Position numbers and translations under genes: made by a program. Shown piece by piece: positions 40,589-40,687 of a DNA stretch of 64,000 nt. This stretch comes from a phage: the sequence record NC_101835.1; one strand, written 5' to 3'. The first letter of the stretch is position 1, and each line of letters opens with the position of its first letter. The notes beneath the pieces were generated by a model. The model did not search any database and was not told where the DNA came from. It saw nothing but the letters and a program-made list of their open reading frames with translations.

Positions 40589-40687
40589 GGTGCTAGGTGA
40601 TGGAATCGAACCACCTATGTATTCAACGACTACCTCGTCTATTTTCAGGATTAAAAATCCTCGCCCTTGCCAAAGGGCTTACCTAGC
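40589..40687 (-). tRNA. atypical long tRNA-like gene (about 99 nt), identity uncertain (anticodon loop TTTTTAA suggests UUU)
   Basis: Perfect 7-bp acceptor GCTAGGT/ACCTAGC, D-arm GCCC-TTTGGCAA-GGGC, T-arm GGTGG-TTCGATT-CCATC, but about 25 extra nt with an additional hairpin (ACGA-GGTAG-TCGT) between anticodon and T arms; terminal CCA not fully encoded. Confidence 0.4.

Follow-up and report, generated by a model that had tools for sequence, protein, structure and literature searches.

The window analysed here, 64,000 nucleotides (nt) of phage DNA (sequence record NC_101835.1), belongs to an rV5-like coliphage (Vequintavirus), and over 40350-41250 its identity to Escherichia phage V5/rV5 and to many of its relatives is 98-100%. 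This region contains a co-oriented cluster of transfer RNA (tRNA) genes on the minus strand, in which ARAGORN gives the order Arg, Tyr, Ser, X, Thr and Met, X being the name used here for a tRNA-shaped RNA gene at 40589-40687 (minus). X belongs to a conserved, previously undescribed family, a variant of phage tRNA-like small RNA, and our best explanation is that it is a working gene whose product is a small RNA of tRNA shape. The anatomy of X is as follows (bp, base pairs).

40589-40687, minus strand: whole gene X, 99 nt including the discriminator A and CC (ARAGORN, Rfam tRNA model, family covariance model R1)
40681-40687, minus strand: 5' strand of the acceptor stem, GCUAGGU, forming 7 Watson-Crick bp with ACCUAGC at 40592-40598
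40679-40680, minus strand: A8 and A9, placed by the alignments, with A8 in place of the usual tRNA U8
40663-40678, minus strand: D arm GCCC-UUUGGCAA-GGGC, extendable to a 6-bp stem with the 4-nt loop UGGC
40662, minus strand: G26, invariant, bordering hairpin 1 on the 5' side
40647-40661, minus strand: hairpin 1 (equivalent of the anticodon arm), AGGAU-UUUUA-AUCCU, alternatively 4 bp with the loop UUUUUAA
40640-40646, minus strand: 5' linker GAAAAUA, with an invariant first G (40646) and a GAAAA core nearly invariant in the family
40625-40639, minus strand: hairpin 2 (extra arm), GACGA-GGUAG-UCGUU, a 5-bp stem with a compensatory change in Avunavirus
40616-40624, minus strand: 3' linker GAAUACAUA, in which AUACAUA is invariant in 32 sequences; phi92-like phages have AUACGAAA
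40599-40615, minus strand: T arm GGUGG-UUCGAUU-CCAUC, with a canonical T loop
40589-40598, minus strand: 3' acceptor strand ACCUAGC, discriminator A (40591), CC and then U, read from the sequence

At 40589-40687 (minus) ARAGORN reported a 99-nt 'tRNA-???' whose anticodon, 'atcc', has 4 bases, the Rfam tRNA model (RF00005) matched 40591-40687(-) with 35.5 bits (gathering score 29) and took about 26 nt in the variable region as an insertion, and the family covariance model R1 scored 102 bits on X. Moreover, the minimum-free-energy (MFE) fold consisted of the same five helices (-34.2 kcal/mol, z = -3.66), and none of 200 shuffled sequences folded as well. ARAGORN, Rfam and the MFE fold thus confirmed the original prediction of a tRNA-like gene with acceptor, D and T arms at this position, and they place it on the minus strand, which had not been stated. 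That X is over-long for a type I tRNA and atypical for type II was correct, and shifting the boundaries gave no standard tRNA of 72-90 nt, with ARAGORN and Rfam using the same ends. The second hairpin proposed before the T arm is present as hairpin 2, but the additional nucleotides, put at about 25, number 31 between hairpin 1 and the T stem (GAAAAUA, the 5-bp hairpin and GAAUACAUA). Likewise, the proposed 4 bp around TTTTTAA hold if the U-A closing pair of hairpin 1 is opened; otherwise the arm has 5 bp and a 5-nt loop, and the MFE fold narrows the loop to 3 nt. The CCA end of X is not completely encoded in the window (ACC-U), and the Arg, Tyr, Ser and Thr tRNA genes of the same cluster all encode CCA. 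The structure drawn by ARAGORN itself (stem AUUUU/AAAAU, 8-nt loop, anticodon 'atcc') was rejected, because the U-run that it requires is found only in the rV5 type and is not conserved.

Annotation of X in public records is inconsistent. X is not among the six tRNAs given for rV5 in its reference genome and paper. The BASEL phages and phage 203 have it as tRNA-Lys(AAA), Murica as tRNA-OTHER (Asp|Gly), JLBYU08 as tRNA-Stop(tta), and the Erwinia phage copies are labelled tRNA-TERM. In the remaining genera it is mostly unannotated or covered by small 'hypothetical protein' open reading frames (ORFs), which we treated as spurious since they differ between genomes and overlie a covarying RNA. Among the family copies ARAGORN detects only the rV5 type, and the Seunavirus, Mydovirus and two metagenomic copies have no tRNA-clan match in Rfam at E <= 0.1. 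A permissive Rfam scan of the region returned only tRNA-clan matches and no ribozyme, riboswitch or small-RNA family; we found no Rfam family for X, and literature searches, full text included, found no description of it. In addition, about 18 unannotated GenBank records of the MG0656xx series go under the name 'Campylobacter phage' although they match this E. coli rV5-like region at 99-100% identity; they have the look of coliphage assemblies that were mislabelled or are contaminants.

Homologues were gathered by BLAST and pattern scans, and the final set contained 32 distinct members. Each query matched 128 to 194 phage records. Homologues came from five genera of Vequintavirinae (Vequintavirus, Avunavirus, Seunavirus, Mydovirus and Henunavirus) and the phi92-like Justusliebigvirus, which belongs to a different subfamily; they were also found in IMG/VR and in 21 metagenome contigs. 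IMG/VR matches to a pattern of the 5' half (n=92) were mostly chance and were set aside, and a pattern scan of one-per-species bacterial genomes gave 4 matches, none of them a family member. The N4-like podophage vB_SenP_UTK0002 (Salmonella, Schitoviridae) carries a copy at 2502-2608 within its own tRNA cluster, and this copy, from one phage, shares 89% identity with the copies in Erwinia myophages, which points to horizontal transfer of tRNA-cluster modules between unrelated phage families.

At every locus whose surroundings were checked, X lies within a tRNA cluster. In most lineages it starts 2-5 nt past the CCA of the preceding tRNA and ends in U-CCA, and it adjoins tRNA-Thr(UGU), its neighbour in the Schitoviridae copy being tRNA-Asn. 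As discriminator, most lineages have U, Vequintavirus has A and Avunavirus has either U or C. Of the large-cluster phages, L060 and EmilieFrey were checked, and both carry a normal tRNA-Lys(UUU) in addition to X. Natural deletions occur in phage V18 and O157 typing phage 4, where the 5' part of tRNA-Tyr is fused to the 3' part of X. The T arms of these two genes are similar, and X was lost by recombination between them, with joints in the T arms or within the variable region; tRNA-Ser is gone together with the greater part of X, and chimeric tRNA-like genes remain.

The fold of X is preserved by compensatory change. In a MAFFT alignment of 17 distinct members, which is unbiased by structure, 99.5% of the stem cells pair and 10 pairs have compensatory double changes; none of 500 shuffles reached the observed values, and slid controls gave 32-44% pairing. 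The alignment of all 32 members was fitted to the covariance model, hence leans toward the structure, and in it 99.3% of the stem cells pair, with double changes in 13 of 22 pairs. The acceptor stem is 100% paired in the 32 members (compensatory changes in 5/7 pairs), as is the T stem of X (a compensatory change in one pair), and covariation extends to 3 of 4 pairs in the D stem and 3 of 5 in the stem of hairpin 1. Further, the tertiary pair 19:56 of the elbow, formed by position 18 of X (tRNA G19) and the T-loop C (tRNA C56), covaries as GC in 22 sequences and UA in 10, the D-loop UUUGGCAA accompanying the T-loop UUCGAUU and UUUGUCAA accompanying UUAGAUU. Because the elbow pair covaries too, we conclude that X folds into a tRNA-like L shape, with acceptor, D and T arms joined by the contact that the D-loop makes with the T-loop. 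Two extra D-arm pairs, U14-A21 and U15-A20, were predicted by RNAalifold and the MFE fold and never vary across the family.

Conservation also extends to single positions and to unpaired stretches. G1, C2, A8, the D-loop UUUG-CAA, G26, the G after hairpin 1 and the T loop are nearly invariant in the family, as are the linkers GAAAA and AUACAUA, and the insert with its flanking A-rich strands is the most conserved part. A8, invariant across the alignments, faces a C in X, so it does not extend the acceptor stem. Identity between rV5 and Av-05 is 91% for X and 71% for tRNA-Thr, and between rV5 and PVP-SE1 it is 70% and 62%, the variable hairpin included; X equals or surpasses the adjacent tRNA-Thr in conservation.

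Hairpin 1 does not have the form of a standard anticodon arm. Across the family its stem is 4-5 bp and its loop 5-8 nt, the best description being a 4-bp stem with a 7-nt loop (8-nt in some genera), and the arm is 1-2 nt shorter than usual. Set against an arm of 5 bp with a 7-nt loop and U33, X has either 5 bp and 5 nt or 4 bp and 7 nt, and U33 is absent in most copies, A or C being common at position 33. The loops include UUUUA, UUAUA, CAUCCA, CAGCCA, CCUCCA, CCUCAA, CUUCCA, CAUCAAA, UAUCAAA, AAUCAAG and GUGAUA. In the type of the window the open loop reads UUUUUAA, in Avunavirus UUUAUAA, and in Henunavirus, Justusliebigvirus, the Schitoviridae copy and several metagenomic lineages NAUCAAR; in Seunavirus and Mydovirus the loop is CCAUCCAG, of 8 nt, closing to 5 bp and 6 nt. 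The triplets at the anticodon position are accordingly UUU, UAU or UCA, none can be assigned in the 6-nt loops, and the orthologues share no anticodon.

The variable region is 31 nt in the window and up to 41 nt elsewhere, and hairpin 2 is found in all members, in at least 5 unrelated sequence classes each with its own compensatory changes: GACGA/UCGUU vs GACGG/CCGUU (A-U to G-C, in Avunavirus), and in other classes CCUCC/GGAGG vs CCCCC/GGGGG, and GCC/GGC vs GUC/GAC vs AGCG/CGCU. Hairpin 2 was rejected as the true anticodon arm, as its loops are of 5, 6, 11 or 12-14 nt and unrelated between genera. In Seunavirus-type copies the sequence UCCA in the loop of hairpin 1 is complementary to UGGA in that of hairpin 2, and phage 4MG has a matching double change (GCCA with UGGC), which suggests a possible loop-loop contact in the Seunavirus-type subclass only; kissing of the two loops as a feature of the family was rejected, for it is absent from the other hairpin 2 classes.

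X is unlikely to be an ordinary codon reader, because hairpin 1 is non-standard and differs between genera while the top half and the linkers stay fixed; the discriminator, which is A, U or C among close relatives, also argues against ordinary decoding, as does the normal tRNA-Lys(UUU) that L060 and EmilieFrey have beside X. We propose, with moderate confidence, that X is a non-decoding tRNA-shaped RNA, excised like a tRNA and acting by binding a tRNA-recognising protein. Such a mimic fits better than a codon reader because the top half, the elbow and 12-15 unpaired linker nt were kept while the loop of hairpin 1 changed in length and sequence. The cluster promoter would drive transcription of X along with its tRNA neighbours, RNase P would cleave X at G1, and tRNA 3'-end enzymes would trim it to a discriminator-CCA end, a maturation suggested by the start near the preceding CCA and the U-CCA end seen in most lineages. 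The CCA is genome-encoded in most lineages and in the window would be completed by the CCA-adding enzyme. The mature RNA would then occupy a protein, from the host or the phage, by which the top half or elbow of tRNAs is recognised, and the A-rich linkers and the two lower hairpins would supply specificity.

The specific version that we favour is that X may act as a decoy or competitor against a tRNA-directed defence, with hairpin 1 copying the anticodon loop of tRNA-Lys(UUU). We favour this role because hairpin 1 of the E. coli phage lineage copies the very loop that anticodon nucleases attack, the tRNA-Lys(UUU) anticodon loop being the target of E. coli enzymes such as PrrC and the AriB of PARIS. 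The anticodon stem-loop is GUUGACUUUUAAUCAAU in E. coli tRNA-Lys, a sequence verified against 5,426 genomes, and GAGGAUUUUUAAUCCUG in X. The site that AriB reads is UAAUC|A for tRNA-Lys and tRNA-Thr and UAAUC|C for tRNA-Asn, and the enzyme also contacts U16-U17 of the D-loop (PMC12409363). X carries UAAUCC and the D-loop UUUGG, a likeness that is compatible with a decoy and equally with a functional tRNA-Lys. A broader form, in which X would be a horizontally mobile anti-defence decoy whose top half and A-rich core dock on tRNA-directed immune nucleases or other tRNA-binding defence proteins, and whose lower hairpin is re-tuned per host range to the attacked tRNA (in E. coli phages tRNA-Lys(UUU), including the UAAUC element of AriB), seems to us unlikely.

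Several points weigh against a non-decoding mimic. Its function is read from shape and conservation only. The likeness to the AriB site extends over only 6 nt, the phage's own tRNA-Thr carries an AriB site too, and the similarity may be mere common descent of tRNAs reading ANN codons. In deep lineages the conserved loop NAUCAAR has UCA at the anticodon position, where it could have a decoding role. All elements of the LysRS identity set (U34, U35, U36 and A73) are found in X if the loop opens to 7 nt, and annotations based on tRNAscan-SE call it tRNA-Lys. Finally, X is dispensable for laboratory growth, because the natural deletion variants V18 and O157 typing phage 4 exist without it.

The alternative that survives best is that in Vequintavirus X is a working, structurally aberrant tRNA-Lys(UUU), charged by LysRS through U34-U36 and A73 and reading AAA and AAG, which we regard as possible though doubtful. 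The top U-A pair of hairpin 1 would open to UUUUUAA, offering U33, UUU, A37 and A38, and the odd body might be resistant to host nucleases as in the case of the T5 tRNA-Lys. In agreement with this, E. coli tRNA-Lys has the same discriminator A, the gene is annotated as tRNA-Lys (AAA) in phage 203 and the BASEL phages, the rV5-type phages have only 5-6 other tRNAs and none of them is a tRNA-Lys, and hairpin 1 is invariant in the Vequintavirus copies read, in which other positions vary. The tRNA-Lys of T5 rescues infection from PARIS (PMC11464382, PMC12409363), and like X this PARIS-neutralising tRNA-Lys(UUU) is a gene of a phage tRNA cluster with an anticodon stem-loop resembling that of host tRNA-Lys; X in addition adjoins tRNA-Thr(UGU), the other main AriB target. 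However, the T5 tRNAs are canonical 76-nt decoders with point substitutions, and X has an altered architecture with a Lys-like loop in one genus only. Its anticodon helix has just 4 bp plus a G-G mismatch, without residue 26, the loop is able to close to 5 or 3 nt, A8 replaces U8, and the CCA is incomplete, unlike in the canonical Arg, Tyr, Ser and Thr tRNAs of the cluster. The sister genus Avunavirus has UUUAUAA and a discriminator U or C on the same body, and all remaining genera have non-Lys loops of 6-8 nt; therefore, the scaffold is older than, and independent of, any Lys reading.

We know of no report of stop-codon recoding in these well-studied phages, which counts against a second alternative that we find improbable: that the ancestor of the family was a UGA-reading tRNA akin to those of serine or selenocysteine (Sec), an opal suppressor working through EF-Tu, that some lineages have kept it as such, and that X of the window is a derivative that lost this anticodon. 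Deep lineages do keep NAUCAAR, with UCA at 34-36, A37, A38 and a 4-bp stem, tRNA-Sec is the top Rfam match of two members (41.9 and 37.6 bits), some records label X tRNA-TERM, and the neighbouring phage tRNA-Ser(UGA) is Sec- or allo-like with an 8/4 shape. X also shares with tRNA-Sec and allo-tRNAs a long extra arm and, in some lineages, a UCA-type loop, and its predicted D stem of 6 bp with a 4-nt loop would be like that of tRNA-Sec (PMC7609411). But the Rfam scores are under the gathering score of 47 for tRNA-Sec (RF01852), and the acceptor and T stems of X are 7/5, which does not make a 13-bp helix, where tRNA-Sec and allo-tRNAs are 8/5, 9/4 or 8/4. tRNA-Sec combines the UCA anticodon with G73; the lineages of X with UCA have A and not U at position 33 and U73, and X of the window has UUUUA or UUUUUAA with A, to which the proposal does not apply. 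Moreover, the anticodon arm of the family is shortened, and 7-11 unpaired nt on each side set its extra arm apart from the core on long conserved single strands, unlike in Ser and Sec tRNAs.

A comparably small probability attaches to X being a passive processing or punctuation element for RNase P and 3' nucleases, or a terminator-like structure, with no trans-acting role. X has tRNAs on both sides, several lineages have the start of a small ORF some 10 nt downstream of it, and the T arm and acceptor strand of the window followed by UUUUU score as terminator-like; yet the neighbouring tRNAs need no additional processing signal, the U-run is missing from other lineages, and selection keeps hairpins 1 and 2, the elbow pair and 12-15 unpaired linker nt, none of which a mere RNase P handle would need.

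The original prediction had left three options open, a tRNA with a small insertion, a decaying tRNA or a tRNA-like regulatory RNA. The second, a decaying pseudogene or a chance match, is hardly credible: inconsistent or missing annotation, the low Rfam score and the dispensability of X in deletion variants would suit it, but it is refuted by the covariation data (compensatory changes in 13/22 pairs among 32 distinct sequences, many of them across genera), and it is at odds with near-invariant unpaired linkers, conservation equal to or above that of the bona fide tRNA-Thr and spread over three phage families or subfamilies. The first describes the shape and not the biology, as the insert with its A-rich strands is what is best conserved and the anticodon arm is abnormal in every lineage; the third is favoured by the evidence as far as a tRNA-like RNA is concerned, and its regulatory part was not borne out.

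Comparison with known RNAs places X apart from each of them. A canonical tRNA (RF00005) has the same 7-bp acceptor stem and discriminator, T arm and D-loop GG with the elbow G19:C56, but it has U8 (pairing with A14) and a variable region of 4-5 or about 13-21 nt, in contrast to A8 and 31 nt in X, which also lacks a standard anticodon arm and an anticodon common to its orthologues. The class II tRNAs (Leu, Ser and bacterial Tyr) resemble X in having a cloverleaf with a stem-loop between the anticodon and T arms; their variable region of about 13-21 nt compares with 31-41 nt in the X family, where 7-11 unpaired nt flank the extra stem to either side, and X differs further by A8 for U8 and its non-standard anticodon loop. 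The nearest analogues in kind are rnaC and rnaD of T4 (species 1 and 2 RNA), non-tRNA small RNAs co-transcribed inside a phage tRNA cluster, whose function is to our knowledge still unknown. rnaC has a terminal tRNA-like acceptor/T-arm module, but the two T4 RNAs are 119-139 nt long without the full D-arm/elbow cloverleaf, and homology was not found, R1 scoring 6.8 bits on rnaC and giving no match on rnaD. The vtRNAs of MHV68 are tRNA-shaped and processed like tRNAs but non-decoding. The bacterial Y RNA YrlA and tRNA-Other of Bacillus cereus are likewise reported to be tRNA-shaped, subject to tRNA-like processing and non-decoding (PMC4201824, PMC3399842). All three are unrelated to X in sequence and none has the paired A-rich linkers and extra hairpin; the termini of YrlA form the Ro-binding stem, those of X an acceptor stem.

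The surroundings of X in the window contain the following features.

40508-40583, minus strand: tRNA-Thr(UGU), 5 nt downstream of X (ARAGORN, Rfam)
40786-40876, minus strand: tRNA-Ser(UGA), 98 nt upstream of X (ARAGORN, Rfam)
41215-41243, minus strand: sigma-70-like promoter of the tRNA cluster, TTGACA-17-TAATAT, the same site being annotated P(tRNA) in phage rV5

tRNA-Ser(UGA), which the rV5 authors detected by ARAGORN only, is selenocysteine- or allo-tRNA-like in shape: its acceptor stem has 8-9 bp (the predicted fold has 9), its T stem has 4 bp, and its D arm is compact, the loop being of 4 nt; Rfam tRNA-Sec scored 41.5 bits on it, the general tRNA model gave no match, and its copies in related phages have U73. 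Paralogy of X with this Sec-like tRNA was rejected, the similarity being modest only. Two spacers of about 100 nt in the cluster, at 40688-40785 and 40877-40990 (minus), are without a tRNA; the promoter-like sequence TCGAAA-17-TATAAT lies at 40912-40884 (minus), directly upstream of tRNA-Ser, and the other spacer holds a CCGG-AAGCAGAA-CCGG hairpin. tRNA-Pro(UGG) at 40043-40431 (minus) is split into its first 25 nt (about 40396-40420), a 353-nt insertion with an ORF for an HNH endonuclease of 113 amino acids (40044-40385, Pfam HNH), and the remaining 45 nt. ARAGORN and Rfam miss this tRNA because 7 nt of the anticodon stem found in rV5 are missing. Further away, a group I intron (RF00028, 50.3 bits) at 37636-38478 (minus) adjoins an ORF for the Walker-A N-terminus of the large terminase, and the terminase coding sequence of rV5 is annotated as three joined pieces.

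Phage tRNA genes have recently been recognised as countermeasures to bacterial immune systems that cut tRNAs. X is an overlooked gene: sequenced enterobacterial phages carry it by the hundreds, strains for phage therapy and of the BASEL collection among them, and it was either passed over or given a wrong label (Lys, Asp|Gly or Stop); the well-defined covariance model R1 would fix its annotation and clear the spurious small ORFs over it. X is open to direct testing, given that deletion variants occur naturally and that the BASEL phages are tractable. If X is a decoder, it would be an unusual bacterial-virus tRNA, with A8, an anticodon arm that is shortened and 31-41 nt in its variable region; if it is a mimic, it would represent an RNA-level mechanism beside the tRNA-based escape of phages from tRNA-cleaving defences.

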